Part shown: positions 5,085 through 63,760 of the stretch, in pieces
Layout: every line of letters starts with the position of its first letter
Numbering within the stretch: the first letter of the stretch is position 1
Assembly: GCF_004010195.1 (NCBI RefSeq)
Contig: NC_057718.1
Coordinates: forward strand, 44,107,809-44,171,808
DNA: 64,000 nt
Direction of reading: 5' to 3'
Source: Chiloscyllium plagiosum
Lineage: Eukaryota
Translations under genes and position numbers: made by a program
The notes under the pieces: generated by a model
Databases searched by the model: none
What the model was told of the DNA's origin: nothing
Seen by the model: only the letters and a program-made list of their open reading frames with translations

Positions 5085-5373
5085 ATGATGGTTAGTACAG
5101 TAGCCTCATAGCGCCAGGGACGCAGGTTCAATTCCAGCCTTGGGCGACTCTCTGTGTGGAGCTTGCACATTCTCCCTGTGTCTGCATGGGTTTCCTCCTC
5201 CAGTCCAAAGATGCGCAGATCAGGTGAATTGGCCATGCTAAATTGCCCATTGTATTAGGTGTATTAGTCAGAAGGAAACGGGTCTGGGTGGGTTACTCTT
5301 TGGAGGGCCTATGTGGAATTGTTGGGCCGAAGGGCCTGTTTCTACACTGTAGGGAATTTAATCTAATCTAAAA
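5085..5373 (+). mobile_element. tRNA-derived SINE (HE1-like)
   Basis: tRNA-like head (tggttag...ggttcaattcc), core ttgcacattctccctgtgtctgc, tail gggcctgtttctacactgtagggaat(ctaat)n. Confidence 0.85.
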
Positions 5374-16300: not shown

Positions 16301-19300
16301 TCACACCGATACTCAGGTTACACCCACCCACTGCTCCAATACTCGGTATTCTCCCTCACATTACTCCAATATTCGGATTTCCCCCTCACATCGCTCCAAT
16401 ACTCCGTATTCCCCCTCACACCGCTCCAATACTTGGGTTACCCCCTCACATCGCACCAATACTCGGGTATCCCCCCTCAGCCCGCTCCAATACTCGGGTT
16501 TCCCCCTCACATCGCTCCAATACTCGGGTTTCCCCCTCACACTGTCCCAAAACTCGGGTATTCTCACTCGCATCGCTCCAATACTCGGGTATTCTCCCTC
16601 ACACCGCCCCAATACTCAGGTTTCCCCCTCACACTGTCCCAAAACTTGGGTATTCTCCCTCACATCGCTCCAATATTCGGGTTTCCCCCCATACCCTCCA
16701 ACAATCGGGTTTCCCCCTCAAACCACCCCAATACTCAGGTTTCCCCCTCACACTGTCCCAAAACTCAGGTATTCTCACTTGCATCGCTCCAATACTCGGG
16801 TATTCTCCCTCACATTGCACCAATACTCAGGTTTCCCCCTCCCACTGCTCCAATACTCGGTATTCTCCCTCACATCACTCCAATAGTCGGGTTTCCCCCT
16901 CACATCGCTCCAATACTCCGGTTTCCCCCTCCCACTGCTCCAATGCTCGGGTATTCCCCCTCACACCGCTCCAATACTCGGGTATTCCCCCTCACACCGC
17001 TTCAATACCTGGGTTTCCCCCTCACATCGCACCAATACTTGGGTGTTTCCCCCCCAGCCCACTCCAATACTCGGGTATTCCGCTCCAATACTCGGGCATT
17101 CTCCCTCACATCGCTCCAATACACGGGTTTCCCCCTCATACCAATCCAATACTCGAGTTTCCCCCTCACTCCGCTCCATACGTGGGTTTTCCCCTCACAT
17201 CACTCCAATACTCGCGTATTCCCCCTCACACCGCTTCAATATTCGGGTTTCCCCCTCACACTGCTCCAATACTCGGGTTTCCCCCTCACATCGCTTCAAT
17301 ACTCGAGTTTCCCCCTCACATCGCACCAATACTTGGGTATTCACCCTCAGCCCGCTCCAACACTCGGGTATTCCCCCTCACATCGCTTCAATACTCAGGT
17401 TTCCCCCTCACCCCGCTCCAGTACTCGGGATTCCCACTCACACCGCTCCAATACTCGGGTTTCCCCCTCACACTGCTCCAGTACTCGGGTATTCCCCCTC
17501 ACATCGCTTCAATACTCAGGTTTCCCCCTCACCCCACTCCATTACTCGGGTTTCCCCCTCACAGCGCTCCAATACTCGGGTATTCCCCCTCCCATCGATC
17601 CAATACTCAGGTTTCCCCCTCACCCCACTCCATTACTCGGGTTTCCCCCTCACAGCGCTCCAATACTCGGGTATTCCCCCTCCCATCGATCCAATACTCA
17701 GGTTTCCCCCTCACCCCACTCCATTACTCGGGTTTCCCCCTCACAGCGCTCCAATACTCGGGTATTCCCCCTCCCATCGATCCAATCGGTATTCCCCCAC
17801 CCACAGCTCCAATACTTGATATTCCCCCTCACACCACTCCAATACTTGGGTATTCCCTCTCACACCGCTTCAATACTCGGGTTTCCCCCTCACATTGCTC
17901 CAATACTCGGGTTTCCCCCTCACATTGCACCGATACTCAGGTTTCCCCTTCCCACTGCTCCAATACTCGGTATTCCCCCTCACACCACTCCAATACTCGG
18001 GTATTCCCTCTCACACAGCTTCAATACTTGGGTTTCCCCCTCACATCGCATCAATACTCAGGTATTCCCACTCAGCCCGCTCCAATATTCGGGTATTCCC
18101 CCTCATGCTGCTTCAATACTCTGGTTACCCCTTCACATCGCACCAATACTCGGGTGTTCCCCCTCATACCGCTCCAACACTCCGGTATTCCCCCTCACTC
18201 CACTCCAATATTCGGGTTTCCCCCTCACACCGCTTCTATACTTGGTTATTCACCTCACAATGCTCCAATACGCGTGTTTCCCGCCCTCATTCAGCTCCAA
18301 TATGCGGGTTTCCCCCTCACACCGCTCCAATAATCGGGTATTCCCCCTCACACCGCTCCAATACTCTGTTCTTCCCCTCACAATGCTGCAATACTCGGGG
18401 TTCTTCCTCACATCGCACCAATACTTGGATATTCACCCTCAGCCCGCTCCAATACTCGGGTTTCCCCCTCACATCGCACCAATACTTGGGTATTCACCCT
18501 CAGCCCGCTCCAACACTCGGGTATTCCCCCTCACATCGCTTCAATACTCGGGTTTCCCCCTCACCCCACTCCAGTACTCGGGTTTCCCACTCACACCGCT
18601 CCAATACTCGGGTTTCCCCCTCACACTGCTCCAGTACTCGGGTTTCCCACTCACACCGCTCCAACACTCGGGTATTCCCCCTCCCATCGATCCAATACTC
18701 AGGTTTCCCCCTCACCCCACTCCAATACTCGTGTTTCCCCCTCACCCCGCTCCAATACTCAGGTTTCCCCCTCACATCGCTCCAGCACTCGGGTTTCCAC
18801 CTCACATCGATCCAATACTCGGGTTTCCCTACCACACCGCTCCAATATTCGAGTTTTCCCCCTCACACCGCTTCTATACTTGGTTATTCACCTCACAATA
18901 CTCCAATACGTGTGTTCCCCCCCTCACACCACTCCAATATGCGGGTTTCCCCCTCACACCGCTCCAATAATCGGGTTTCATCCTCACACCGCTCCGATAC
19001 TCAGTTATTCCCCTCACAATGCTCCAATACGTGAGTTTCCCCCTCAGACCACTCCAATACTTGGGTTACCCCCTTACACCACTCCAAGACTTAGTTATTC
19101 CCCTCACATTGCTCCGATACTCAGGTTTCCCCCTCCCACTGCTCCAATACTCGGTATTTCCCCTCACACCGCTCTAATACTCAGGAATTCCCTCTCACAC
19201 CGCTTCAATACTCAGGTATTCCCACTCATCCCGCTCCAATACTCGGGTATTGCCCCTCACACTGCTTCAATACTCGGGTTACCCCCTCACTTCGCACCAA

Positions 19301-21640
19301 TACTCGGTTGTTCCCCCTCAGCCCGCTCCAATACTCGGGTGTTCCCCCTCAGCCTGCTCCAATACTCGGGTGTTCCCCCTCACTCCACTCCAATATTCGG
19401 GTTTCGCCCTCACGCCGCTTCTATACTTGGTTATTCACCTCACAATACTCCAATACGCGTGTTTCCCACCCTCATACCGCTCCAATATGCGGGTTTCCCC
19501 CTCACACCGCTCCAATAATCGGGTATTCCCCCTCACACCGCTCCAATACTCTGTTCTTCCCCTTACAATGCTCCAATACTCGGGTTTCCCCCTCATATCG
19601 CACCAATACTTGGGTATTCACCCTCAGCCCACTCCAACACTCGGGTGTTCCCCCTCACATCACTTCAATACTCAGGTTTCCCCCTCACCCCGCTCCAGTA
19701 TTCGGGTTTCCCACTCACACCGCTCCAATACTCGGGTTTCCCCCTCACACTGCTCCAGTACTCAGGTTTCCCACTCACACCGCTCCAACACTCGGGTATT
19801 CCCTCTCACATCGATCCAATACTCGGGTTTCCCCCTCACCCCACTCCAATACTCGTGTTTCCCCCTCACCCCGCTCCAATACTCAGGTTTCCCCCTCACA
19901 TCAATCCAATACTCGGTTTTCCCTACCACACCGCTCCAATACCCGGAGTTCTCCCTCACTCCACTCCAGTACTCAGTTATTCCACTCACACCGCTCCAAT
20001 ACTGCGATTTCCCAATCATACCGCTCCAATACTCTGTTATTCCCCTCACAATGCTCCAATACTCGGGTTTCCCCCTCACAGCGCTCCAATACTTGAGTTT
20101 CCCCCTCACATTGCTCCAATACTCGGGTTTCCCACTCACACCACTCCAATACTCGGTACTGACCCTCACACCGCTCCAGTACTCGGTATTCCGCCTCACA
20201 CCGCTTCAATACTCGGGTATTCCCCCTCACTCCGCTCCAATATTCGGGTTTCCCCCTCACACCGCTTCTATACTTGGTTATTCACCTCACAATACTCCAA
20301 TACGCGTGTTCCCCCCCTCACACCACTCCAATATGCGGGTTTCCCCCTCACACCGCTCCAATAATTGGGTTTCTTCCTCACACTGCTCTGATACTCAGTT
20401 ATTCCCCTCACAATGCTCCAATATGTGGGTTTCCCCCTCAGACCGCTCCAATACTCGGGTTACACTCTTACACCGCTCCAAGACTTGGTTATTCCCTTCA
20501 CAATGCTCCAATACTCAGGTTTTCCCCTCACACCACTCCGATACTTGGGTTTTGCCCTCACACCGCTCCAATACTCGGTTATTCCCATCACACCGCTCGA
20601 ATACTCAGTATACACCTCACACCGCTCCAATACTCAGTATACCCCTCACACCGCTCCAATACTCAGTATTCCCCCTCACACCGCAGAAATACTCTGATAT
20701 CCCCCTCACACTGCTCTAACACTTGGGTTTCCCCCTCACACCGCTCCAGTACTCAGTTATTCCCCTCACTGTTCACTCAGATTGCTCCAGTACTCATGTT
20801 TCCTCCTCACTCCGCTCCAATACTCGGTATTCCCCCTCACACCGCTCCGATACTCAGGTTTCCCCCTTCACATCGCTCCGATACTCAGTATCCACCTCGC
20901 ACCACTCCAATACTCAGGTTTCTCCCTCACATCGCTCCAATACTCGGGTATTCCCCCTCACACTGCTCCAATATCCGGGTTACCCCCTTACACCGCTCCA
21001 ATACGCGGGTTTCCCCCTCACACTGCTCCAATACTCAGGTTTCCTCCTTACACTGCTCCGATACTCGGTATTCCCCCTCACATCGCTTCGATACTCAGGT
21101 TTCCCCCTCACACCGATCCGATACTCGGGTCTCCTCCTTCACACCGCTCCGATACTCGGTATCCACCGCGCACCACTCCGATACTTGGATTTCGCCTTCA
21201 CACCGCTCCAATACTCAGGTTTCCCTCCCACACTGCTCCATACTCGAGTTTCCCCCTCGCACCGCTGCAATACTTAGGGTTGCCTCTCACTCTGCTCCGA
21301 CACTTGGGATCCCCCTTACACCGTTTGTCCCCTTCACATTGCTCCAGTACTCAGGTTTCTGCCTCATGGTGCTCCAATACTCAGGTTTCCCCCTCCCATT
21401 GCTCCAATGCTCAGATTTTACCCTCATGGCGCTCCATCACTTGGATTTCCCCTCACACTTTTCTGGTATTCCGGTTTCCTCTCACACAGCTCCATCACTC
21501 GTGTTTCCCTCTCACACCATTCCGGTATTCGGGTTTCCCCCTCACTGCGCTCCAATACTCGGGTTTCCTTTCAGACAGCTCCGGAGCACTCTGGTTTCCC
21601 TCTCACGCCACTCCGGTATTCGGGTTTTCTCTCATGCCGC
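10389..21640. repeat. ~11.3 kb minisatellite, 30-32 bp unit (consensus ~CCCCCTCACACCGCTCCAATACTCGGGTATT)
   Basis: Directly visible tandem array with a C-rich + strand. It degenerates toward 21.3-21.6 kb and contains a homogeneous 30-bp sub-array at ~14880-15435. Confidence 0.98.
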
Positions 21641-22451: not shown

Positions 22452-24511
<2,060 letters not shown>

Positions 24512-25960: not shown

Positions 25961-26415
25961 CTCGGCAATGTCAAACAAAAGACCAATAGAAGCAGTGACC
26001 TTCTTTCCATTTCTCAACTTCATGTTTCCTTCACCCCATTTTTCACAAATCCACTTTCTCCCAGATCTCGTACATGGACAATAAAAATCTTTAGTTCCGT
26101 ACCATGATGCCATGATGAAAACTAATTAGAACATGTCAAACTAAAAGACTCTTTTATAGATGAGATGGGTGAAAATCCACAGAAAGATCTTCCCCTCTGT
26201 CCTTTAGATATCTTCCTGAGTCATTCAAAGTCAGAGATTGGGACACTTACAATCATATCACATTTTGTAACCCAATATCTATAAGGCGGTTGGAGTCAAT
26301 TTTATCGCAATTACATTCATCAACAATTCATGATAAGAATGCATTTTTTTCTATATGTGTATGGGACAAAATTGTGATATTGTTCTTTACAATACCATTG
26401 CACAATTCATGAATC

Positions 26416-27349
26416 AAGACATTTGATAATGTTCCCCATGGTAGGCTCATTCAGCAGGTCAGGAGGAATGGGATACAGGGGAACTTAGCTCTCTGGATAC
26501 AGAATTGGCTGGCCAACAGAAGACAGCGAGTGGTAGTAGAAGGAGAACATTCTGCCTGGACATCTGTGGTGAGTGGTGTTCCACAGGACTCTGTCCTTGG
26601 GCCTCTACTGTTTGTAATTTTTATTAATGACTTGGATGAGGGGATTGAAGGATGGGCCAGCAAGTTTGCAGATGACACAAAGGTTGGAGGTGTCGTTGAC
26701 AGTATAGAGGGCTGTTGTAGGCTGCAGCGGGACATTGACAGGATGCTGAGATGGGCTGAGAGGTGGCAGATGGAGTTCAACCTGGATAAATGCGAGGGAG
26801 ATGCATTTTGGAAGGTCGNNNNNNNNNNNNNNNNNNNNNNNNNNNNNNNNNNNNNNNNNNNNNNNNNNNNNNNNNNNNNNNNNNNNNNNNNNNNNNNNNN
26901 NNNNNNNNNNNNNNNNNNNNNNNNNNNNNNNNNNNNNNNNNNNNNNNNNNNNNNNNNNNNNNNNNNNNNNNNNNNNNNNNNNNNNNNNNNNNNNNNNNNN
27001 NNNNNNNNNNNNNNNNNNNNNNNNNNNNNNNNNNNNNNNNNNNNNNNNNNNNNNNNNNNNNNNNNNNNNNNNNNNNNNNNNNNNNNNNNNNNNNNGGGGT
27101 CATAGTTTTAGGCTGGTTGGAGGAAAGTATAGAGGGGATGTCAGAGGCGGGTTCTTTACACAGAGAGTTGTGAGAGCATGGAATGCATTGCCAGCAGCAG
27201 TTGTGGAAGCAAGGTCATTGGGGACATTTAAGAGACTACTGGACATGCATATGGTCACAGAAATTTGAGGGTGCATACATGAGGATCAATGGTCGGCACA
27301 ACATCGTGGGCTGAAGGGCCTGTTCTTTGCTGTACTGTTCTATGTTCTA
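26416..27349 (+). mobile_element. CR1-group LINE, 5'-truncated, spanning an assembly gap
   Basis: RT motifs FDNVPHGRL, SGVPQDSVLGPLLFVIFINDLD, KFADDTK, WQMEFN; ORF2 end FFTQRVVRAWNALP; tail gttctatgttct. Confidence 0.93.
26819..27095. other. Assembly gap (N run)
   Basis: Run of n. Confidence 1.
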
Positions 27350-27449: not shown

Positions 27450-29130
27450 GAGTTTGAGTCTGATTTTTTGTTGTCAAATATACCAAGATACATTTATAAG
27501 TGTTGTTTTGTGAGATTGTACTATACATGTAGCAGAACAGGGTGCAAAATACCATGTTACAGCTACAGAGAATGTGCAGAGAGAGACATCAACCTTAACA
27601 TTTGAGAGGTCCATTCAAAGTCTGATAACAACTGGGAAGAAGCTGTTCTTGAATTTGTTTGTATGTGTATGCAAACTTTTATATACACATAATTGTATGT
27701 GTAAGAGCATAATTGACATAATTGAGTGTAAGATCGTATAACTAGGACAAAAAGGGGTCTTTGATTATGGAATCAATGGATGGAAGGCTGGTTTGTGTGA
27801 TGGACTGGGCTGTTTTCACAACTCTCTGTAATTTCTTGCGGGCTTGGGAAGAGCAGTTGCCATACCACGCTGTGATGCATCCTGGGAGGCTGCTTTCTAT
27901 GATACATCTACAAAAATTGGTAAGAGTCTTTGTGGATATGTCAAATTTCCTTAGCTTCCTGAGGAAGTAGAGGCATTGGTGTGCTTTCTTCACCGTTGCA
28001 TCAATGTGGGTGGACCAGGACAATTGTCGGTGATCAATTGTTGGGGCGGTACGATGGCTCAGTGGTTAGCACTGCTGTCTCACAGTGCCAGGGACCTGTG
28101 TTCAATTCCCACCTCGGGCAATTGTCTGTGTGGTGTTTGCACATTCTCCCCGTGTCTGCGTGGGTTTCCTCCGGGTGCTCCAGTTTCTTCCCACAATCCA
28201 AAGATGTGCAGGTCAGGTGAATTGGCCATGCTAAATTGCCCATAGTGTTAGGTGTATTAGCCAAGGGTGAATGTAGGGGAATGGGTCTGGGTGGGTTGCT
28301 CTTCGGAGGGTCGGTGTGGACTTGTTGGGCTGAAGGGCTTTTTTCCACACTGTAGGGAATCTAACCTAATCTAAAAAAAAATCACTCAAAAGGCCCTCTC
28401 AACCATCTCTACGTCAGCACCATTGAAGCAGACAGGGGTTTGCCATCTACTCCGCTTCCTGAATTCAATGACTAGCTTCTTCGCTTTGGTGACATTGATG
28501 GGGAGATTGTTGGCTTTACTCCATGCCACTAAGTACTCAATCTTTTTCCTCTATTCTGTCTTGTTACTGTTTGAGATCCAACCTACTATGGTGTTATCAT
28601 CAGCACACTTGTAAATGGAATTGGGGTGGAATTTGGCCACACCTTCATGAGTGTATAATGAGTATAGTAGGTTCTGAGTAGACAGCGTTATGGGGCATCA
28701 GTTTTGAGGATTATGGTGGAGGATATGTTGCCACCTATTCTTATTCTGATTATGGCCTATGAGTCAGGAAGTTGAAGATCCAGTTACAGAGAGATGAGCC
28801 AAAACCTAGTCTCAGAGCTTAGAGATGACTTTGGAACTATGGCATTGAAGGCGAAGCTATAGTCAATAAGTAGGAGCCTGACATAGGATAACTAGGGCCA
28901 GGGAGTTGGCATTTGCTGGAAACCTGTTGTACCAGTAGGTGAGTTGCAAAGGATCAAGGCAATTTGGAAGGCTGGAGTTGATGTGAGTCAAGACTAATCC
29001 ACCCAAAATTCTTCATAAATTTCGAAGTGAGAGCCACTGCGTTGTAGTTATTGAGGCATGCTGCATGACTTTTCTTTGGCACCAGGATGATGGTGGTGGT
29101 CTTGAAGTAGGTGAGGATTTCAGATCGTAG
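27450..29130 (-). mobile_element. Older Rex1/Babar-like LINE remnant with a nested SINE
   Basis: Minus ORFs FKTTTIILVPKKSHAACLNNYNAVALTS (RT N-terminal part) and SWSTHIDATVKKAHQCLYFLRKLRKF...IESSLPGCITAWYGNCS (C-terminus). Confidence 0.8.
28044..28380 (+). mobile_element. tRNA-derived SINE (HE1-like), near full length
   Basis: A-box tggctcagtgg, B-box gttcaattcc, conserved core, (ctaat)n/A tail. Confidence 0.9.
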
Positions 29131-51039: not shown

Positions 51040-52061
51040 GTATCTAAAATACTGTAATATTTATTTCTTGTCATGTTTTCAATTTCTGTATTTAGAATGT
51101 ATTTCTTAGGACAAGATGTAAGTATCTTTCATTGTGTTTGAAATATTTCTGTACCAGGAAACAAAACTCTAAATTCTCAAGGCCTAATTATGTACAAAGA
51201 CCAAGTTGCCACTTTGCTGCATGTTACTGAACTGATACAAGTGCTCACTCATCTTTTAGCATTTATTAATGTGGTTTGATGTAAAACTATTTGGGCTACC
51301 CTGCAGACAGTGCAACAATGGCATTATAATACATAAGACACGGTGCAAATCTGTATGTGGGGTTCAACAAAATGCCATATTCTTATTTTATTTGATATCT
51401 CTGTGGAAATTGTTGCCTGTTGTTAAAGTTATGTTTGGGGATTGAATCTTATATTCTTTTGGCTAAATACAAAATGCATCTGGTTTTTTTGGAGGGATTT
51501 CCATTATTAGGCCTAGCAAGGTTTCTCACTGTATCTTACAAAACTTACCTCATTAACTAACTACCCTTCCGTATAGCGTCGATCACATCCAATTCCGGCC
51601 CCATTTTATCTCGTGTTATTTCCAGAGAAACTCACCACTCACCAGATCTTCCCTGAAAAACTGGAACTCATGCCATCTTTAAAAGTCCTTGTACATGGTC
51701 AGTATGGATCTGCCTTGTATTTTCCTGATGGTTGTCCCGGTCTTGGCAGACTTGTGAAACTCGGCATCCCACTGTGTGTACAGTGTCCTGGAGCTCTGGC
51801 TGGACAGTTTGATGCAAAGTCAGGGCGTCATCTACCCTCAGGACCAGCAATAGAGACCAACACACCAGACCATGCCAGCCTAATCCAAGGTTAGCACCCG
51901 GATCAGTGAAGTCTCAGCCATCTGGAGAAGTGCTCAGCTCTGTAGGATAAGGTCAATGTCCTTTCCCACTCATGATTTGGAGATGCCGGTGTTGGACTGG
52001 GGTGTACAAAGTCAAAACTCACACAACACCAGGTTATAGTCTAACAGGTTTAATTGGAAGC

Positions 52062-52098
52062 ATACTAGCTTTCGGAGCGTTGCTCCTTCATCAGGTGA
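52062..52098 (-). ncRNA. Minimal hammerhead ribozyme motif
   Basis: The minus strand reads cac-CTGATGA-aggagc-aac-gctcc-GAAA-gcta-gtatg, with a fully paired stem II. Confidence 0.7.
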
Positions 52099-52146
52099 TA
52101 GTGCAGGGCTCAATCCTATCTGTGTGTTAGGATTGAGCCTTCCACT

Positions 52147-52185
52147 ATCATCTGATGAAGGAGCGACACTCTGAAAGCTAGTGTG
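52147..52185 (+). ncRNA. Minimal hammerhead ribozyme motif (slightly decayed)
   Basis: cat-CTGATGA-aggagcgacactct-GAAA-gcta-gtg. Confidence 0.62.
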
Positions 52186-54619
52186 CTTCCAATTAAACCT
52201 GTTGGACTATAACCTGGTGTTGTGTGATTTTTGACTTTCCCACTCAGCCAGTGTAAGTGCTACCACCTTCTTTCTGATACCTCACACTTTAAACCTGCTA
52301 CTGTACCCATTTGCCCGAAAGGTTCATGCTCTACCACTCTCAATAATGACAGCAACATTTTCTCTCCCACCACAAACCCTGGCACCACTAACCCTTCATG
52401 CCCACTGTGCTGCCTGATCTCTGACTCATGACACCACTCCACCTGCACTAACCGTAACAGCTGTACCGCACACTTACATCTCCCTTATTACCTGTGTCTC
52501 TCCCAATAAAGGAGGAAAGATCTGTCTAGTATAGCAGTTGGGTAATGGACTGCCTGACATTCAACTCCTCACCCCAATATGGAGAGCTTCCTGTCTCTGA
52601 CTGTCCTGAATGACTGACTGGACTAGTATCGGAGGCTGCCCTTGACTTATTGTGCTGGGATCTCCTGAGAGGAAGCTTCCTTTGTGTCTGTGCTAAATAG
52701 CAAGACAAGACAGAACCAATATGGGCCTCATACCTCTGGCTGAGTGGCAACATCCTAAGAAGGCAATGCTAGGCAGGGATGCTATGGGCATCTGGGTAGG
52801 ATCTGAGTGAGAGAATGCTATAACATTGAACAAAAGCCTGTAGATGTAGCCTGGTCCAGTCCATGAGCTGATGTAGTGTCCCTGAGCAGACAGTATCCAT
52901 ACTGAGCATTACATTGCTAGTTGCTGGTACAGCCCAAGTTGCAGCATTGAATTGCTGAAACATCCTGCAAGTGGATTGGAGATGTGCCATGCAGGTTAAT
53001 AGAGGGTGGCACATATCTGATGCCAGTGCCCATGAAGATTGGGTGTATATGGTCTGTACTCATGAAGCTTATCCTGAGATCTTGCTGCTTAGTGTTCAAC
53101 ATGGTGTTTGTTCAGACCAAATAGTGAAATGTGCTCACCAGGTACCTGCTCTAGTTTCCATCTTGAATTTTCTCGACATTAAGCATGTTTGGAGAGATGG
53201 AAAGCTGAATATTAATGGGGCTACTTGGGTCATGAACAAGGTGTTTAACAAACAATATTGCCCCTTAACTGGCAACTCGCTGCTATTTAGCAAGAAACTC
53301 CATAACATCATATCTACCCACCTTACCTACTTAGCTGCTACTCAACTGCTGCTCATCTATCATCCTCCTCCTTCACCCATTTACCTACCATTCTACTTCT
53401 TCAACCACCTGCCACCCTAAATACCTCATCCAGCCACCAGTCCAAATCCATCTCTTGGTTTCTTACAAGTCTTAGATATTTCAGGCATGGCATAATAGAC
53501 TAAATCAATTGAGGAGTAGCATACCCTTACTTAACCCCTTCACCCAACTACTTGCCACCCTGCTACCTCATCCACTTACCAAATAGCCCATCTGCTCAGG
53601 AAGTTACTGTGAGCACTCACCATTTCTCTGTAGATTGTTACATTTTTCCAGTTAAATAAAGGGCTGTAGTGCTGTTTCTACATTGCCGTGGAAGGCTCTG
53701 AGAATGGGTACACTCCACACGTCTCAAGAGATCTGATTTAGATATCTAAGCCAGAAATGCTGAACTCCTGGGCACAGTAACAGACACAAAGTGGAATAGC
53801 AACCAGATAGTGGTTGCCACTCTTCGGTAGATTTAGTCAATTATGTCATTCCTAAAATACCTTAAATCTGTAAGGCATGAAGAGATGGGCTTGAACTGAA
53901 TTTTCAAATACCAGTAGGGTTATGAATGTGGTTGTGAAGTAAATAAATAGTTTCTTTACTGCAACTTCAAATTTGCAAAGGCTTCTCAATACCATGCTAT
54001 TTTTGTCTGGCATTTTCATGATTAAGGAAGGCCTTGTGTAGCATACACTCCTTCTGAATGGCGAAATTGGCATTGTCAGTGCCATAGGAAATGTGAATGT
54101 CCTTCTCTGCATTAATTTTGTGTGCTGGTGAGTTTTGGAACATCTAACCTAAATCCACCAGGTTCAAAGTTTGTAACCATTGGGAAAAACTGAAACTGAG
54201 TAGTCTGAAAGAATCTTATAGATAAGTGTTAAATGTTTTGACAGCTTCAGGTGTCAGTATTATATATTGTGCTGTAACATAGATGTGTTTTTAATGTAAT
54301 GATTAATCATAGGGCTGTGTCCTGCCAAGTAAGTTGATCATTGTATTGACCACCATTGTGTAACAGTTGACATACAAGACAGTACTTCTACATTTTGTGA
54401 AAGTGCCATAACGCATTCAAACTGTGGAAAAATCTATTGAAAAGTGCAGGGATTTAAATATCCAGAAATCTTTTTCACAAAGTAACTCGAAGCTAATATA
54501 AAATTATAATGCCATGAATGCAAGACACTTAATATAAGAACAATTCTAGAAAAATTCTAGATATTTGGCTAAATCTGCAAAGTTCACTTTTTGAGTAGAA
54601 GATAAAATGTTTTATACAG

Positions 54620-55150: not shown

Positions 55151-56078
55151 AAAATAAGTAAATCACCAAAATAAATCTAAGCACTTACTCTGGTCCATCG
55201 ATTGACAAATAACCTGTTTTGAAATGGAAATTAAGAATTACCTGAAGGTTTGAAAGGGTCATCTGGTTTACTAATTTCTATGTTTACATTCCATTTTTTG
55301 TTTTAATATTATGACTACTTAACTGATTATTATCCCAGAAAGAAAAAGGGTCACTGAAGCTGAAATGTCAACTCTGTTTTCCCTCCACAGATCCTGCCAA
55401 AACTGCTGAGTTTCTCCAGCAATTTTTGGTTTTGTTTAAGGTGATGTGTGTGCATTTTTGAGAGGTTATTAAATAGTTTTTTTTATGCGATAGGTGGGCA
55501 TGTTTTACAAAAATTAGCCACTTGTGTAATTTTTACAATTTTTGAATGCCTGCATGAATAAGAATTTTATTATGTCGAGTGTCTTCAATTATGACACTAT
55601 CTTAGATTGTACACAGCCTGCTTTTTTCTATATATCTATTTCAAAGACATGGTGATGTCTGCCCAGGTGAGTGGCTTTCAAGGATATATGGGGGGGGGGG
55701 CATGAGGGGACATGGGAGTATGAAGGAACATAGAAAGGCTTGACAAAATGAGGGGGCATGGAGGGTATGAGGGATATAATGGGTCATGGATATGGCATAG
55801 AGGCTTTAAGAGGATGTGGATGGGCTGTGGTTGTAGGTGAGGGTAAGGGGCAAGAGCTAGGATCTATATGAACAAATTGAAGAGCTGAATTGATATCTTA
55901 GGTTTTCTAACCAGATAGCCTGATTCCCTGAACTTCTTTGACACCAGTGCAGAACTGAGTACACTTAAACTCTGCCCATTCTCACCTACAGGAGATAGAA
56001 GTCTGGTGGCTATGGGCAGGGGTAGAAGACTCAAGTTTCCAAACACAGGAAATGACACAGGAAATTTCTTGAATGCAG

Positions 56079-56101: not shown

Positions 56102-56134
56102 CTGCTGGAGAAGCTCAGCAGATCAAGAAGGATG

Positions 56135-56909
56135 TGTCATATTCAAGTGACCATGGGCCCGTTTGGATATTCTAAATGGACCCACAGTTGGAGAAATCAG
56201 ACATGACAGAAAATTGGACAAATTAACCAGCAGCTATCAGCTACAAAGAACAATGGAAATCAAAATCAAAAATGTTATGGAGGTTCATCGGGAAACAATT
56301 ACAATAAACCCGAGGGTTGTGTATTGGAGAAGCATTGATTAGACATTCTGATATCTTTGCTGCCTGAGAATGTGCACTTTGTACCTCGTGGCATAGCAAT
56401 AGTGAAGGGTATTGGCAGGACCCCATTGGATGATTTGACCCCAGCTCATCACCCCATTGACCAAAGGCCACAGAACATTTCAGAAGGTCAGGGGTGAACA
56501 GGAATAAGAACGCACAACTTGATGTCACCCCCTCAGTGAAGGCTTACAGCAGAAGGCCACGCAGAAACCGAAGAAGACCCAGGATAAGATCCTCCCTGAT
56601 CTGTGAGACCCACCTTCATGGAAGAGAGCCATCCCTACATCAGAGAGGGAAAGAGACTTCAACAGCTCAGCTCAAGGATCATGGCAGGTAAAAGCCTCTC
56701 CTCAGCCTGATAATGCTAGATAAAGATTAAATATTGTGGGAATTTGGAAAATACTCCCATAGTGTTTTTACAAAGGAATATTTTGTTCGTAAAATCAAGT
56801 TGAATTGCAAACCAAAGTTTCAGTCTTTTTGTCCACCTCACCAACAACAGCACTTGGGTAAAGTGTTATTAATACATAAACTGGTCAAAGTGTCCAAAGC
56901 ACAGATACA
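56135..56909 (+). mobile_element. 5' LTR of decayed provirus
   Basis: Starts TG and ends ...gataCA. It is colinear with 61314-61400 plus 62761-63497 (shared blocks such as cccgagggttgtgtattggagaa, gacccagc.cat..cccattg, gatgtcac.ccctcagtg, taaatattgtgg). Confidence 0.82.
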
Positions 56910-57149
56910 ATGTTATCTCTGGATGATCTTCAACTAGAAGTGTCTGTATAACCTCCAAAGTCGAACAAACACCACCCACCTTTCTATCTGACCTCTCAGA
57001 CATCCAGCCTGAGCCCAAAAGAAGAGGGTAAATGCCTATATGATGGCCAGGATTCAAAAGGTTGAAAGAGGATGAAGGTTTCTGACCAGTGATTTGATCA
57101 TTAACCAAGTGCTTGTAATGTGAGGGGGAAAACACAGTTAGAGTTTGTA

Positions 57150-59084
57150 CAGAATCAGAACCCACAGAAAAGGAAATCTAGCATAGGCTAGTGCAGGTCA
57201 GGGATTTTGTGCAATGAACAGAGGCAAGGAGCCAAACAAAGGATCAGAGGACGAACAAGGTGGCAAGATGCCAGATATTGGAGACAAGGACTCACAAGGA
57301 TACAGAAAAGTTAGAGTAGGTCTAGGTCCCAGAGCTGTAGAGAAGCACAAAGGAAGCTAATATAGGGGCAGGAACCCATGAGAGAGAAAGCGAAATTGAG
57401 AGAGAGAGAGCAGTAAATTATAAGAAAACATACATAAGAAGTTCCCAGGTGGGTCAACTATTGCAGTGAGCAAATATTTGGTCCAAGATCCATAGGACAC
57501 AGATGCTGGGAGACTCCAGAAAGCTGAAGAGAAGCACACTGTGTGAACATCAGCAAGGTTTCAGCAATAACCATCTACATGGGAGCTACAGAAGTGAAGC
57601 TGAATGAAATGAAACAAGAGCTGGAACCAGTAAGAGTCAAAGCAGCAAAGCAGGAGCAGAGGAACCATGAGAATGTGGTACACTTGGGATAGATTTTGAC
57701 CCAGTGTGATAGACTGTACCAGGAGGAGTAGCGCTTGGTCAGTGATCAGGACATAGCCCAGAAGCTATGAATGAGCTGACCAAGAAAGTAAAAACCCATC
57801 GATTGTGCTCAGAGTCCTGCACCAGGCAGGCAAAGAAAACAGACCCCCATACTGTGGACTCTACAAAATGTCAGTGCAAGATTGAAAAATTAAAGTTCAA
57901 ACATTCCATGCATTTAGGACAATAGAATCAGTTGGGAACAGCAATTATGGGTTAGACTGGGAGGAAATGGAAGACCAAGTTTTTTGATACGCCAAGAGTA
58001 GCGAAGATTGGGAATCTGTTCCTCCTTTTCCAGAGGGAGTAAATCTTCAGCAACTCCAGGTTCTTACCCTGGCCTGAAGAACCAACTGATCACAACCTAT
58101 CAGCATGCCCAGAGTAATAATCCAATCACTTATACAGCCCCCGTTTTCAGTGGCATAATTGGTGGAGAGAGCAAAATAATCCCGTTTCTGAACCCACTGC
58201 TGACAACGTATGTTTAACCCACCAACAAAGGGTTCTCCATGGGCTCGATAGTGTCAAGGAGATAAAATTAATGTTAATGTACCTGAACCCCCATGATCCA
58301 TTCTGCCTTCCACAATCCTTAGCATATGAGAGGACAGGAGCTGCAGTCCATGACAACAGCAATCCTAGCCACTGTACAGTACAATTGGGGAAATGCTGTG
58401 GATGGATTAAATCAGCATAGGCAGCAGAAGGAGCAGCACCTAATTGTATTTGTCAAGAACCTGTAGAACAATTCACGGGAGTCTTCAGTAACTGAGATTG
58501 AATTAGGCTGACACCACAAAACAGGGTAAATTGGAACCAAATGCTTGTCTCACACACCACTGAGAGCACGAGGAAAGCCTGCAAAACCTTTGATCCCACA
58601 GACAACATCCAGACAAAATAATAGGTGATAAGGAAGATAACCCAAGCCTGGGAGAAAGATTCATGAATCAGAACACCCCAAATCAGGCCAAGGGAAAAAT
58701 GCACCCAATAAAAGCTCCAAACCCCAGTCCTGTGTGCAGGAATGAAGGGAGAAACAAGGGGTGTTATTATCACAGCCATCCACCTGTATACACCCATCCT
58801 GCAGAAAGAGGTAGGGATTGCCAATAGGAGGTCTGAGGCAGTAGCAGCTACCACAAGAGAAATGCTACAATTGTGGGCACACAGAGCACTTCTAAGGGAC
58901 TCCAGGGTACCTAGGGCAGTTAGTGCAGGAGCCAGGCTTCAGACCCCAGTTCATGCCAGTGGAAGAACCAGAAAGAAAACCAGCAGGTAGTTTGGTGAGG
59001 AAGATCATGCAGCCAAATTCAGAGGAGGAAACCCTGCTGTCTAAAACCTTATACCTCTGGTTGGATCCATTCCCCAAAGCATGA
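57150..59084 (+). pseudogene. gag: Decayed gag of provirus
   Basis: Coiled-coil-like segments, a zinc knuckle CYNCGHTEHF*xD at 58863-58900, and a second degenerate knuckle at ~58990-59020. Many stops and frameshifts; ends at TGA 59082-84. The 5' boundary is approximate. Confidence 0.65.
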
Positions 59085-60770
59085 TGGAGCCATGCCTCTC
59101 CCCAGTGGGTGTGCAGCACCAGATGGGCCAGTCCTGGTAAATGGAAAGAATGAAGGCTGCCCCATTGTGTTTATAAGGGACATAAGGGGGTCCAGAATGA
59201 ACACATCCTGAGATTTTGATAATGCACAGTGCACCCATTAAAAACCTTTTTCGAGTGGACTCATTGAAGGAAGGGGGCAGAGAAAGATGCCTTGAGTTTA
59301 AACTGGGAGAGTTAGTTTGCCATCACCCAGCAGTGTTGGTTAATCTCCACATGGATGTTGAGCACATTTTAAACTCAAATCTTATGAGGGCATGTTTTTT
59401 TTTGTTTCGATTTGGCAATTCCCTGAACTCGATGAAGCCCCAGTGGAGATTGTGACAGGCACATGCACACAGGGAATTTGTACCAAAGGGAACTGTGGAT
59501 AAGACCCACCAAAATGACTGAGGATCCAGCAACACAGGTAATTCTCGCAGAGCATAACTGTACATTCACCAACACAACTGCGAATCGTATCGAGGGTGAG
59601 ATAGTGATGGACAGACCTGACCCAAAACCACAAAGAAAATACACTTGCCGCAAGTAGGCAAGAGGGGGAGGTGGCCAAGATCATTAGCAACTTGTTAAAA
59701 CAAGGAGTACTATGTCCGATTGCATCTACCAATAACTCACCAATGTGGCCAGTTAAAAAACACATGGCTTTTGACAGCTCACCATTGATTACAGGAAATT
59801 AAATAAAACACCCCAATCACATCACCAACAGTAGTAGCAACTAGCCTCAAAACCATGATGAGACAGTGCCCCATGGGCTAAAATATTTCACTGTACTGGA
59901 CATTAGTAATAGATTTTACTCCATCCCCCTCCACAACCACTATCAATATAAATTCACCTTCACATTTCCAGGCCAACAATGCACACGGACCTGCTTGCCC
60001 CATGGATTTCATAATTCTCCATCAATAGTTCATCAGTGGTGATTTAAAGGACTGGAGAGGTTTTCCTGACTGGACTGCTTGGTACAACATGTGGAACATA
60101 TCTGCCTGCCCTTCAGAGACAATGACCAAACACTTGGTACTGTTAAAGAAATTGTCAACCATCCTCACTAAACTAAGACTAAATGTTAACCCCAAGAAAG
60201 CACAGATCACAAGGTTCCACCTCTCATACTTCAGAACTGAGAACCCTCTGGAGAAAAAACGGGAGCTATAGGGAGAGGCTGAACAGGCTGGGGCTGTTTT
60301 TCCTGGAGCGTCAGAAGCTGAGGGGTGACCTTATAGAAGTTTATAAAATTGCGAAGGGCATGGATAGGATAAACGTCTCTGGGGTGGGGGAGTCCAGAAC
60401 TAGAGGGCATAGGTTTAGGGTGAGAGGGCAAGTTTTTCATTCAGAGGGTGGCACATGTATGGAATGAGTTGCCAGAGGAAGTGATGGAGGGTAGTACAAT
60501 TGCAACATTTAAAAAGCATCTGGATGGGTATATGAATAGGAAGGGTTTGGAGGGATATGGGCCAGGTGCTGGCAGGTGGGACTAGATTGGGTTGGGATAT
60601 CTGATTGGCATGGACGAGTTGGATCAAAGGATCTGTTTCGGTGGTGTACATCTCTATGACTCTGAGGCCATAATCCTCCCCAGGGATCTGAGCTCGTTGT
60701 GTTCCTTTCTGGGCTTAGTGAGATACTGTCAGAATCACATCGACGTTTTCACCACTAAAACTATGTTGTT
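59085..60770 (+). pseudogene. pol: Decayed protease and reverse transcriptase of provirus, interrupted by CR1
   Basis: Protease-like PIVFIRDIRGS (DTGGS-derived, 59179). RT: LLKQGVLCPIASTNNSPMWPVKK, LTIDYRKLNK, KYFTVLDISNRFYSIPL..YQYKFTFTF, TCLPHGFHNSPSIVH, LVQHVEHI (YVDD-derived, 60088), VNPKKAQ. After the CR1 insert: LPRDLSSLCSFLGLVRYCQNHIDVF. Confidence 0.9.
60262..60663 (+). mobile_element. CR1 LINE 3' fragment inserted in proviral pol
   Basis: SYRERLNRLGLFFLERQKLRGDLIEVYKI..., tail ctctatgactct. RT homology resumes immediately after it. Confidence 0.9.
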
Positions 60771-61400
60771 CAGCCTGTTTACTTTGATCTACCTCACTGT
60801 CCTCCGTTGGAAGAAGAAACTCAATGAGAAACTAACCACGGACTCTATGCTATTATAGTGGGAACCAAGCACTTAATGAACACACACTGCATCATGAAAG
60901 GATGATGCCAATTGTTCAGTGGTATGAATTTTACTCTATTGAGAGCTGCTAATCACCTAAGAGGCTTAAGGGCTATCAAGTGAATGGAATTAGTAACTAA
61001 TTCTTAACTTCTATATTATTTGTATATAGCACTGTTAAGCTTGTTTATGTGCATATGGAAGATAGTTAATGTCTGGGATACAGCTGTCTATGTGCAATGG
61101 GGAATCTAGATAGTGAGGGACAAAAACAGGAATTGCAGTAAAAGCTCAGCAGGTCTGGTAGCATCTGTAAAAAGAAATCAGAGTTTTGGGTCCAGTTACC
61201 CTTTCTCAGAAGTGAGGGAGTTAGGCTAGCTGCCTGAGTCTTGACAAGTGCCTGCACAAGAGTATGATCAGAGTCTGTGATCTCATTTTTGCTTGACACT
61301 TCAAGGGATCAACTGTGGTCAAATGACCATAGGCCCAAAATTGGACATTCTAAATCAACCCACAGATGGAGAAATTGAGCTTGACAGAAAACTGGCCAAA

Positions 61401-62760
61401 AGGTGTGCCGCTGGAAAAGTACAGCAGGTCAGGCGGCATCTGAAGAGCAGGAGAGTCGACATTTTTGGCATAAGCCGTTCATCAAGAATGTTGGGATGGG
61501 CAACCAAAGGGCTTGAGAGATAAATGGGAAGGGGGATGGGGCTGGGGGAAGGTAGCTTGGAAGGCAATAAGTAGATGAAGGTGTGGGGTGATTAGATTAG
61601 ATTCCCTACAGTGTGGAAACAGACCCTTTGGCCCGACAAGTTAATACTGATCCTCCGAAGAGTAACCCCCCCCCAGACCCATTCCCCTACCCTACAGTTA
61701 CCCCTGATTAATACACTTAACACCAGGGGCAATTTAGCATGGCCAATTTACCTGATCTGCACATCTTTGGACTGTGGGAGGAAACCAGAGCACCCAAAGA
61801 AAATCCACGCAGACACAAGGAGAACGTGCAAACTCCACACAAACAGGTGCCCGAGGCTGGAATTGAATCTGGGACCCTGGTGCTGTGAGGCTGCAGCGCT
61901 AACCACTGACCCTCTGTGCCAATGATAGGTTGGAGTGCAGGGTGGAGTGGATAGGTGGGAAGGAAGATGGATAGGGAGGACAGCTCAAGAATGCGGTGCC
62001 GAGTTAGAAGGTTGGATCTGGGATGAGGTGGGGGGAGGGGAGATGAGGAAACTGGTGAAGTCAACATTGATGCCGTGTGGTTAGAGGGTCCCAAGGAAGG
62101 AGATGAGGCGTTCCTCCTCCAAGTGTTGGGTGGCTTGAATTTGGCAGTGAAGGAGGCCTCCTCTATATTGGGGAGACAGGATATCAACTTGTGGAATGGT
62201 TCAGGGAACATCTCTGGGACCCACACACACCCAACAATCCCAATGCCATGTGACCGAGCATTTCAATTCCCCCTCCCACTCCACCAAGGACATGCAAGTC
62301 CTGGGCCTCCTCCACCGCCAAATCCAAGCCACCCGATACCTGGACGAAGAACGCCTCATCTTCTACCTAGGGATCCTCCAACCACATGGGATCAATGTTG
62401 ATTTCATCAGTTTCCTCATCTCCCCTCCCCCCACCTTATCCTGGATCCAACCATCCAACTTAGCATCACCTTCTTGAACTATCCCACCTGTCTATCTTCC
62501 TTCCCGTCTATCTGCTCCACCTTCAGCTCTGACCTATCACCATCATCCCCCACCTTCATCAACTTATTGCCTTCTAAGGTACCTTCCTCTCAGCCCCACA
62601 CCCCTCCCATTTATCTTTCAACCCTTTGGACTGCCCCCTACCCTCCCCATGCCCAAAACATTGACTCTCCTGCTCCTCAGATGCTGCCTGACCTACTGTG
62701 CTTTTCCAGTGCCACACTTTTTGACTCTGTTCTCCAGCATCTGCAGTCCTCAATTTCTCC
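61401..62760. mobile_element. Penelope-like element with inverted structure (minus part 61401-62158, plus part 62159-62760)
   Basis: The plus part encodes GLLYIGETGYQLVEWFREHL...EHFNSPSHS...LDEERLIFYLGILQPHGINVDF (GIY-YIG). The upstream part is its reverse complement. Confidence 0.85.
61593..61921 (-). mobile_element. HE1-like SINE nested in the Penelope element
   Basis: Reverse complement of the SINE family at 28044-28380, with an (attag)n tail at ~61591-61603. Confidence 0.9.
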
Positions 62761-63624
62761 GACAAAATTGGCCAAACTAATTTAAACAGCAAGATCATAG
62801 AGGTTATAAAACTTCAGGGGAATCAGTTACAACCAGCCCGAGGGTTGTGTATTGGAGAACTTTTGATCAGACTTCCAGGCATCTTGCCTTCCAGCCAATG
62901 CCTGAGACCATGCACTTTACACCTCCTCAGAATGGCAACAGTGACTGGTGTTGGTGCGACCCCATTGGATAACTTGAACCCAGCCCATGATCCCATTGGT
63001 CAAAGACCAGAGAACATTCCCGAATGTCAGGAGTAAGGGGGTCTAAGAGCACACACCTGGATGTCACTCCCTCAGTGCAAACCCAACCTGACCCAGCAAT
63101 GGAGCTCCAACCATCTGGAGGGAGAGAGAGGCAGAGAGACAGAGACACAGAGACAGAGAGGGAAAGAGAGAATATCCATTCTGACCTGCAAGTGGCACCT
63201 TCATAGGAGACAGCCAGCCCTACATTGGAGAGGAAGGAGATTCCAACAGCCCAGCTAAAACGCATGAGTCATTGTAGGTAAAATCTTTCACAGATTGATT
63301 GAGCTAGACAAAGAATAAATATTGTGGTAATTTGGGAAAGGCTCACAAAGTGTTTTTAATAAGGAATATTTCATTAATAAAATCGAGTTGACCTGCAAAC
63401 AAATTTTGTGTTCCCTTGTCTACCTCATTGACAAAACTGCATGGGTAAATTATTTTTAATACATAAACAGGTCAAACTGTCAAGACCACAGACAATAATG
63501 TGAAAACAGAAGCAGAATGAACAGAGTTCCAAGAAGACTCACACTTGACTTGACCCTTTAACTCTTTTTTGCTCAACACAGATGCTGCCAGACCTGCTGA
63601 GTTTCTACAACGTATCCTGATTTT

Positions 63625-63760
63625 GTATCCATTGATTGCATTCACCTATGATAGGACAATACATAACTTGGATAATTCTACAACCAAAACAAAGATATTT
63701 GCAAAATTTAGTCCAGAGAGAGATTACTAGAGTTGAGAATGATGGCCATAATTCTACTTG
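63625..63760 (+). pseudogene. USH2A: Probable 3' piece of usherin pseudo-exon (about human exon 53)
   Basis: With frameshifts it reads YPLIAFTYDRTIHNLDNSTTK/QDILQN.SP../TRVEN, versus human YRISAWNSYGRGLSKAVRARTKEDVPQGVSPPTWTKIDN. Spacing is largely preserved but identity is low. Confidence 0.45.

Follow-up and report, generated by a model that had tools for sequence, protein, structure and literature searches.

A decayed shark provirus related by its reverse transcriptase to snakehead retrovirus

Related retroviruses

Endogenous retroviruses (ERVs) related to snakehead retrovirus (SnRV) have been known in a chondrichthyan since 2015, when the elephant shark's CmiERV lineage I was described as clustering with SnRV (Han 2015, PMC4422223), and across vertebrates since 2018, when clade Huo, or class III ERVs, was recorded in every major vertebrate lineage (Xu et al. 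2018, PMC6001957). SnRV, which is P0015/L001 here and is identical to the SnRV row of Dataset S3 of PMC7947760, has a zf-CCHC domain with one CCHC knuckle in its Gag. Lokiretroviruses have an Env similar to the F protein of Mononegavirales, a CGIN1-related integrase and an optional smc (Wang & Han 2021, PMC7947760).

The provirus examined here occupies positions 56135–63497 of the window, the whole 64-kb stretch of DNA that was analysed. A previous sequence-only reading regarded its pairing of a class III-like reverse transcriptase (RT) with a CCHC-containing Gag as unusual, but this combination is not new because SnRV and, by eye, CmiERV-I have both. CmiERV-I resembles the provirus in its chondrichthyan host, in its RT motifs (NSPIWPV, LDISNGFWSIPL and LPQGFHNSP) and in a Gag CCHC knuckle (by eye, Dataset 1 of PMC4422223), of which the provirus has a probable partial remnant. 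It differs in being nearly complete, with integrase, a gamma-type env and a clear primer binding site (PBS), whereas the provirus is without RNase H, integrase and any env. The LTRs of the two are unrelated (by eye), and LTR divergence is 0.033 in CmiERV-I and approximately nine times that in the provirus.

Structure of the provirus

A pair of LTRs, the 3' copy split by an insert, encloses a decayed gag region followed by protease and RT (Table 1). The LTR-flanked structure that had been proposed is thus borne out, as are the protease and RT of the proposed LTR-gag-pro-RT-LTR order, while gag is assigned only by position and one partial knuckle. The LTRs were 78% identical across 115 columns and 76% identical across 660, giving K2P distances of 0.26 and 0.29, respectively (overall range 0.25–0.34), which are rough values because few transitions were counted relative to transversions (97/81). 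A 7-bp inverted repeat with 61314–61320 closes at 63490, a candidate end for the 3' LTR. An unambiguous target site duplication (TSD) was not found at the provirus ends, where three readings compete and none is decisive (GATG/GACA around TG...CA termini, ATG/ATG, or ATGTG/ATGTG). No recognisable PBS was found in the leader after the 5' LTR, and the PBS of CmiERV-I, which we take to be of the tRNA-Ser type, had no match there at ≤3 mismatches, in a region that is approximately 15% decayed. Neither tRNA genes nor Rfam matches occurred in the 64-kb window.

Table 1. Features of the provirus and of the elements inserted in it
Feature	Position	Strand	Remarks
5' LTR	56135..56909	+	76–78% identity to 3' copy; ambiguous termini, with the 3' end at 56903 or 56909
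Leader and decayed gag region	56910..59200	+	Labelled from its position; all three frames contain many stops
Single partial zinc knuckle, C-X2-C-X4-H	58863..58904	+	Broken by a stop; lacks the fourth Cys
Protease C-terminal part and linker	59264..59655	+	tblastn and frameshift-aware alignment to P0175; frameshifts near 59401 and 59487
Reverse transcriptase	59656..60262	+	RVT_1 match; alignment to P0175
Inserted LINE 3' end	60263..60665	+	Splits P0175 match between 60262 and 60676; boundaries approximate
Last RT/thumb residues before large deletion	60676..60774	+	33-aa match to P0175 361–393 at 67% identity, E=1.7e-8
AT-rich spacer	60775..61313	.	Unassigned; contains short host repeat 61120–61215
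3' LTR, first part	61314..61400	+	Similarity to 5' copy
Nested palindromic element	61401..62763	.	Splits 3' LTR; arms 78–82% identical
3' LTR, second part	62764..63497	+	Start approximate; end 63490 or 63497

The protease and RT match P0002/P0175, the nearest intact relative, over 59264–60262 and, beyond an interruption, over 60676–60774, with 195 of 327 aligned residues identical (60%, breaks included). The RT motifs lie where the sequence-only reading had placed them, and the identity of the RT is supported by a Pfam RVT_1 match that passes the cut-off (E=2.5e-8). The RT is broken by frameshifts near 59656, 59763, 59810, 59881 and 60110 and by stops at 59772, 60040 and 60067. Its catalytic site reads HVEH compared with YVDD in the relatives, so that both aspartates of YxDD are gone, and the provirus codes for nothing functional.

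The LINE insert in the RT is presumably of the CR1 type, and its end, once translated, looks by eye similar to the LINE-like N-terminus of P0110. No similarity to RNase H, integrase or env was found in the AT-rich spacer. A hydrophobic stretch at 60760 with RWKKK after it was considered as a remnant of an env transmembrane region and rejected, as another frame of the spacer scored equally high (2.15 versus 2.07). The palindromic element is flanked by a 13-bp duplication (61388–61400 and 62764–62776, 12/13 matches) and contains a dispersed repeat of approximately 320 bp at 61590–61912; other copies of this repeat are found at 28056–28371 and 5089–5368 in the window.

The gag region

The pattern C-X2-C-X4-H occurs once on the + strand of the element, at 58863, and is followed by a stop. 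The Pfam zf-CCHC match at this position (E=0.86) scored 10.3 bits against a cut-off of 20.8. Among 5000 resamples, the strict form of the pattern turned up once and the loose form in 3.5%. As it is unlikely to have arisen by chance in the resampling, it is probably a genuine though decayed zinc knuckle. Of the CCHC knuckles that had been read in Gag, one probable partial knuckle stands, without its fourth Cys and below the zf-CCHC cut-off. A search for homologues using one frame of the gag region as query found none among 1127 candidates at E≤0.01, which is weak evidence, and neither SnRV Gag, SnRV Env nor any of the retrieved proteins had a credible match in 56900–59300 or 60771–61330. The gag label is putative, drawn solely from position and the knuckle; no homologue scored.

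Placement of the reverse transcriptase

A phylogenetic analysis of the RT was performed on 74 rows and 259 columns, of which the provirus row fills 42%; the six Loki rows included were of fish or lamprey type, with amphibian Loki and Odin left out. The provirus paired with P0175 (support 99/96) within a 14-row clade (87/94), where the pair sits among amphibian and coelacanth ERVs. The non-foamy canonical retroviruses were recovered with support of 94/85, and the provirus fell inside the canonical retroviruses with Loki outside (100/97). It lies outside the foamy, class I and class II groups, within the grade that holds SnRV and ERV-L. In the tree, the backbone of that grade forms an open polytomy, and no clade uniting SnRV with the relatives of the provirus was recovered. 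When 24 regrafted alternatives were compared, only that placing the near clade as sister to SnRV survived (p-AU 0.32), while the provirus alone, or paired with P0175, was rejected as a direct sister of SnRV (p-AU approximately 5e-4). Over 108 columns, the RT identity of the provirus averaged 0.49 with the near clade, compared with 0.47 with SnRV (whose 0.47–0.49 is the highest among named exogenous viruses), 0.35 with foamy, 0.35 with Loki and 0.23 with Gypsy. Judged by its RT, the provirus is a member of the SnRV-related grade (class III non-foamy, 'Huo').

The sequence-only reading of a retroviral, class III-like and non-Gypsy element is upheld by the tree and the regrafts, which exclude an epsilon position as well; its suggestion of a lokiretrovirus-like basal lineage falls. 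That reading had listed an RT within Gypsy or among epsilon-like ERVs as evidence against itself, and neither grouping appears in the tree. Its list omitted the already known shark SnRV-related lineage.

P0002/P0175 and P0019, a gene model from Mustelus asterias, represent a shark ERV family that is 74% identical to the provirus over the core RT columns, and P0002/P0175 matches P0019 at 77/81 and 97/104 residues (93–95% identity by piece). The thumb sequence that follows the LINE insert in the provirus also matches P0175. The provirus differs in being broken and truncated, whereas P0175 has a 654-aa open frame that runs into RNase H. A dual RNase H (tether and RH) was found in the relatives P0003 and P0006, and the tether in P0175. 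The next named matches were Pol proteins of amphibians and the coelacanth. When metagenome contigs were scanned with P0175, 37 pattern matches yielded a single distant locus (31% identity), and hence no intact contig of the family that carried gag, integrase or env. P0034, which closely tracks the CmiERV scaffold-2 RT (by eye), falls inside the same 14-row clade as the provirus but on a separate sub-branch. The provirus may belong to the CmiERV-I sub-lineage, the tie being by eye and by proxy.

Divergence and age

The best explanation as a whole, which we hold with considerable confidence, is an old, dead SnRV-related shark provirus that integrated into the germ line and then decayed neutrally. 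The founding virus, a retrovirus of the SnRV-related grade (non-foamy class III, 'Huo') that was either exogenous or re-infecting, would have reached the germ line of an ancestral shark through the usual steps of reverse transcription and integration, apparently in a single event. Frameshifts and stops have gathered since, a deletion has removed the tether/RNase H, integrase and any env, the LINE 3' end has entered the RT and the palindromic element the 3' LTR, and the LTRs would have drifted apart to approximately 76% identity. The end branch of the provirus RT (0.40) appears to agree with approximately 0.15 substitutions per site in each LTR. In the internal region, CpG o/e is 0.14, compared with 0.44 in SnRV. 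The provirus is likely to be of great age, and the insertion is probably common to three organisms (A, B and C), i.e. orthologous.

The shark rate assumed by Han 2015 (PMC4422223), 2.2e-10 per site per year, gives approximately 670 My when applied to the LTR distance, which is impossible, and the epaulette pedigree rate of 7e-10 per generation also yields an impossible age. Because of this, neither rate was used to estimate age. The impossible 670 My, together with the absence of a clean 4–6-bp TSD with canonical termini, would suit a recombinant or mosaic element whose two LTRs came from different proviruses of the same lineage, so that their 24% difference overstates the age. We regard this as improbable, as the decay of the RT matches the LTR divergence in degree, the palindromic element, a later arrival in the 3' LTR, already has arms only 78–82% alike, and candidate duplications are available (GATG/GACA around TG...CA termini, or ATGTG/ATGTG).

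If the insertion is orthologous and an outgroup has the empty site, the SnRV-related grade would have a minimum age in elasmobranchs of well over 100 My, and the locus would help to test the neutral rate of sharks, for which the literature value gives an impossible age. More tentatively, this germ-line provirus might be among the oldest recognisable two-LTR shark proviruses, fixed before the split of A, B and C, with its lineage persisting, with little protein change, in open-frame copies such as those near Mustelus. Its sole use would be as a dating point, if orthologous, for how old the grade is and how fast shark non-coding DNA accumulates substitutions. So classified, the provirus is of little importance, as the copy is dead and half its genes are missing; its probable great age is mildly unusual.

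Other placements

A basal position near the lokiretroviruses, as suggested previously, would have made the provirus the first from a chondrichthyan, as the asterisk that apparently marks Loki-positive genomes is missing from all five rows for sharks or chimaeras found in Table S2. The two have in common an LTR-gag-pol layout and some generic RT motifs (NSPIWPV-like and DxxNGFW), but these motifs occur in HERV-L, SnRV and foamy rows too. Several relatives carry a 'NYNRIN-like' annotation, NYNRIN presumably being the CGIN1 to which the Loki integrase is reported to be close; this hint is overruled by the RT tree. The six Loki-type proteins form their own clade (100/100) outside the canonical retroviruses, and a Loki placement was rejected both when the tree was constrained (delta lnL 38.5, p-AU 0.0115) and in the regrafts (p-AU ≤0.002). 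In addition, xPFG is present in 24/24 published Loki RTs and in 6/6 of those in the tree, while the provirus has LPHG and its near relatives LPQG (12/14), VPQG or LAQG (the other two), with Q in all 14 and F in none. The xPFG motif is our own observation from Dataset S3 of PMC7947760, which does not state it as defining. A lokiretrovirus is thus very improbable, and the provirus does not fill the chondrichthyan gap in the distribution of this group.

The same very low probability attaches to a foamy-like (Spuma/clade Tu) ERV. Foamy RT structures were among the best PDB matches, behind MLV, and the LDISN-type motif fits, but zinc fingers are reported absent from spumaviruses (PMC2717909 and PMC8278194), and the provirus retains a knuckle remnant. 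The foamy clade (100/97) leaves the provirus out, and foamy regrafts were rejected (p-AU ≤4e-4). An epsilon-like (class I) shark ERV is equally implausible, and so is a retrotransposon of the Ty3/Gypsy or Odin kind. These groups commonly have CCHC knuckles and env is absent from the provirus, but its absence coincides with a deletion that took integrase too. Odin retrotransposons, reported from sea anemones only, are not among the rows of the tree, but Odin is reported as sister to Loki, a position rejected for the provirus. Regrafts to Gypsy (p-AU ≤0.006) and to WDSV/WEHV (p-AU ≤0.0015) were also rejected, and the full-length relatives have a tether and a second RNase H.

Structure of the provirus

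The element is a real, very old and dead provirus of the known grade related to the snakehead retrovirus (SnRV). The LTR-bounded layout proposed in the sequence-only reading was borne out by two long direct repeats that are 76–78% identical. The 5′ LTR (56135 to approximately 56909) aligned with 61314–61400 (78% identity, 115 columns, K2P 0.26) and with approximately 62775–63501 (76% identity, 660 columns, K2P 0.29), giving a K2P distance across the entire LTR of 0.295 (bootstrap 0.25–0.34; 97 transitions, 81 transversions). A 7-bp inverted repeat was found in the 3′ LTR, TGTGGTC at its start and GACCACA at 63484–63490. The similarity between the LTRs extends a few bases past the latter, and there are therefore three readings of the termini and TSD. 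The palindromic element that splits the 3′ LTR contains a repeat of approximately 320 bp, with two further copies elsewhere in the window. Copies of a short palindromic host repeat family lie on either side of the provirus, suggesting that it inserted into one such copy.

The presence of a retroviral reverse transcriptase (RT) was also confirmed, as a single frame of 59608–60165 (stops read as X) matched Pfam RVT_1 (E 2.5e-8). The best PDB match of the window RT was to MLV, with foamy virus RT next. A search with the RT frame recovered one intact relative, P0002, among 93 candidates. P0175, a member of the P0002 cluster, is an open 654-aa frame (PR-RT-tether) that matched 59264–60262 (195/327 residues), crossing seven frameshifts and three stops, and matched the window again at 60676–60774. 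The two matches are separated by approximately 400 bp of LINE 3′ end, presumably of CR1 type. The YxDD site reads HVEH. Only approximately 540 bp lie between the last P0175 match and the 3′ LTR, where full-length relatives have roughly 800 further Pol residues, and the tether/RNase H, integrase and any env have therefore been deleted.

P0175 also matched a Mustelus asterias gene model (77/81 and 97/104 residues), and this ERV family is therefore resident in sharks. In that model (P0019), pol pieces of the family are fused to the N-terminus of a lysophosphatidylcholine symporter-like protein, which most probably reflects an error of gene prediction where a provirus lies in an intron or upstream of the gene. 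The repeat content of the window appears shark-like.

Every frame of the gag region carries stops, and the region has no scored homologue. The CCHC knuckles claimed for it in the plural were not confirmed: a single one was seen, at 58863, incomplete and scoring under the Pfam threshold, although the strict knuckle pattern arose in only 1 of 5000 resamples.

Phylogenetic position of the RT

A set of 274 RT domains was extracted; a minimum length of 200 aa left 246 of them, and dropping rows more than 80% identical left 143. Foamy, walleye, gamma, delta, beta, alpha and lenti RTs were taken from viral contigs. SnRV (P0015 and L001, 10,688 nt) was identified as the SnRV row in the available part of Dataset S3 of PMC7947760, and lokiretrovirus (Loki)-type proteins were picked by eye against the Loki rows there. 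A careful tree was built from 73 hand-chosen rows and the window row, which came from one frame and provided 108 informative residues, with group labels assigned by hand and with Odin and the amphibian Loki sub-clade unrepresented.

In this tree, Loki (100/100) was sister to the canonical retroviruses (100/97), within which foamy viruses (100/97) were sister to the remainder (94/85). The window and P0175 paired (99/96) within a 14-row clade (87/94) whose named rows are from Xenopus tropicalis, Aquarana, Rhinophrynus and Latimeria. This clade, SnRV, the ERV-L-like rows and class I/II formed an open polytomy; a quick tree had united the clade with the ERV-L-like rows. P0006, a Latimeria member of the 14-row clade, lacks a CCHC knuckle ahead of the protease and has an RG-rich segment there, and nucleocapsid type is therefore variable inside the clade.

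The lokiretrovirus placement suggested in the sequence-only reading did not hold. Constraining the window and P0175 to Loki, with the tree re-optimised, cost 38.5 log units (p-AU 0.0115). The motif xPFG was present in 24/24 published Loki rows and 6/6 Loki rows of the careful tree; the window reads LPHG, and 14/14 near relatives have Q at the position of the F. Twenty-four regrafted topologies were also compared with other branches fixed under LG+F+G4, for which reason the p-values are too small. The AU test rejected 23 of the 24, including every move to Loki, foamy, Gypsy, WDSV/WEHV and ERV-L, as well as the window alone or paired with P0175 directly beside SnRV. The sole survivor placed the 14-row clade beside SnRV (p 0.32). 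Under the SH test, which is more conservative, several moves to SnRV, ERV-L or foamy escaped rejection, but every Loki, Gypsy and epsilon move was rejected.

Comparison with published lineages

The available text of Han 2015 (PMC4422223) describes elephant-shark CmiERV lineage I as clustering with SnRV, with an LTR divergence of 0.033. Inspection by eye of the accessible deposited sequence showed a CCHC knuckle, RT motifs matching those of the window and a close resemblance to P0034, a member of the 14-row clade. In the portion of Xu 2018 available (PMC6001957), clade Huo is defined as related to SnRV, with class III ERVs among its members and with hosts in every major vertebrate lineage; the member from lamprey has since been moved to Loki. 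SnRV has one zinc finger (available text of PMC2717909), as our Pfam search also found, and XtERV-S and foamy viruses have none (available text of PMC8278194). No chondrichthyan appears among the Loki listed in the available part of Wang & Han 2021 (PMC7947760), and sharks are unmentioned in that of the Odin paper (PMC9040795). Our literature searches turned up no account of this particular ERV family; the 452 ERV sequences of Xu 2018 or the supplements of bioRxiv 2021.11.23.469661 may contain it.

Age and sharing between organisms

Using t = d/2u and rates quoted in the available text of Han 2015, the mammalian rate of 2.2e-9 per site per year puts the LTRs at approximately 67 My, and the shark rate assumed there, 2.2e-10, puts them at 670 My, which is impossible; the true age can therefore be given only as large. 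A single old integration appears more likely than a mosaic provirus, because the LTR distance, the window RT end branch in the careful tree (0.40), the CpG o/e (0.14 in the internal region versus 0.44 in SnRV) and the arms of the later palindromic insert (78–82% alike) agree.

When 31-mers sampled from 56135–60250 were compared with sequencing runs, the 24 matches listed included organism A (0.46–0.93 of 31-mers, 8 runs, the best matches maybe being the window's own source), organism B (0.31–0.38, 9 runs, 4 studies) and organism C (0.25, 3 runs, 1 study). Judged from these sequences, orthology is the likely cause, since paralogues with such decay would have almost no 31-mers in common.

Other features of the window

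Repeats and mobile element fragments in the window
Feature	Position (strand)	Details
Palindromic element	61401–62763	Splits 3′ LTR; 13-bp duplication, 12/13 matching
Short palindromic host repeat family	56103–56137, 61120–61215, 63560–63626, 55370–55435, 2297–2498	
Tandem array, ~30-bp C-rich unit	10389–21323, decaying to ~21570	11 kb; ~361 copies, 77% match
LINE-like fragments	23338–24500 (−), 26413–27105 (+)	Endonuclease match under cut-off; RVT_1 match E 7.7e-14
LINE 3′-end fragments	1146–1400 (−), 41821–42060 (+)	Match LINE-like part of P0110, P0114
Near-perfect hairpin	52008–52238	111-nt arms, 92% complementary, 9-nt loop
Short tandem repeat, 60-bp unit	31278–31466	~3 copies

The hairpin is probably a MITE-like element. 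The C-rich tandem array yields many spurious long ORFs.
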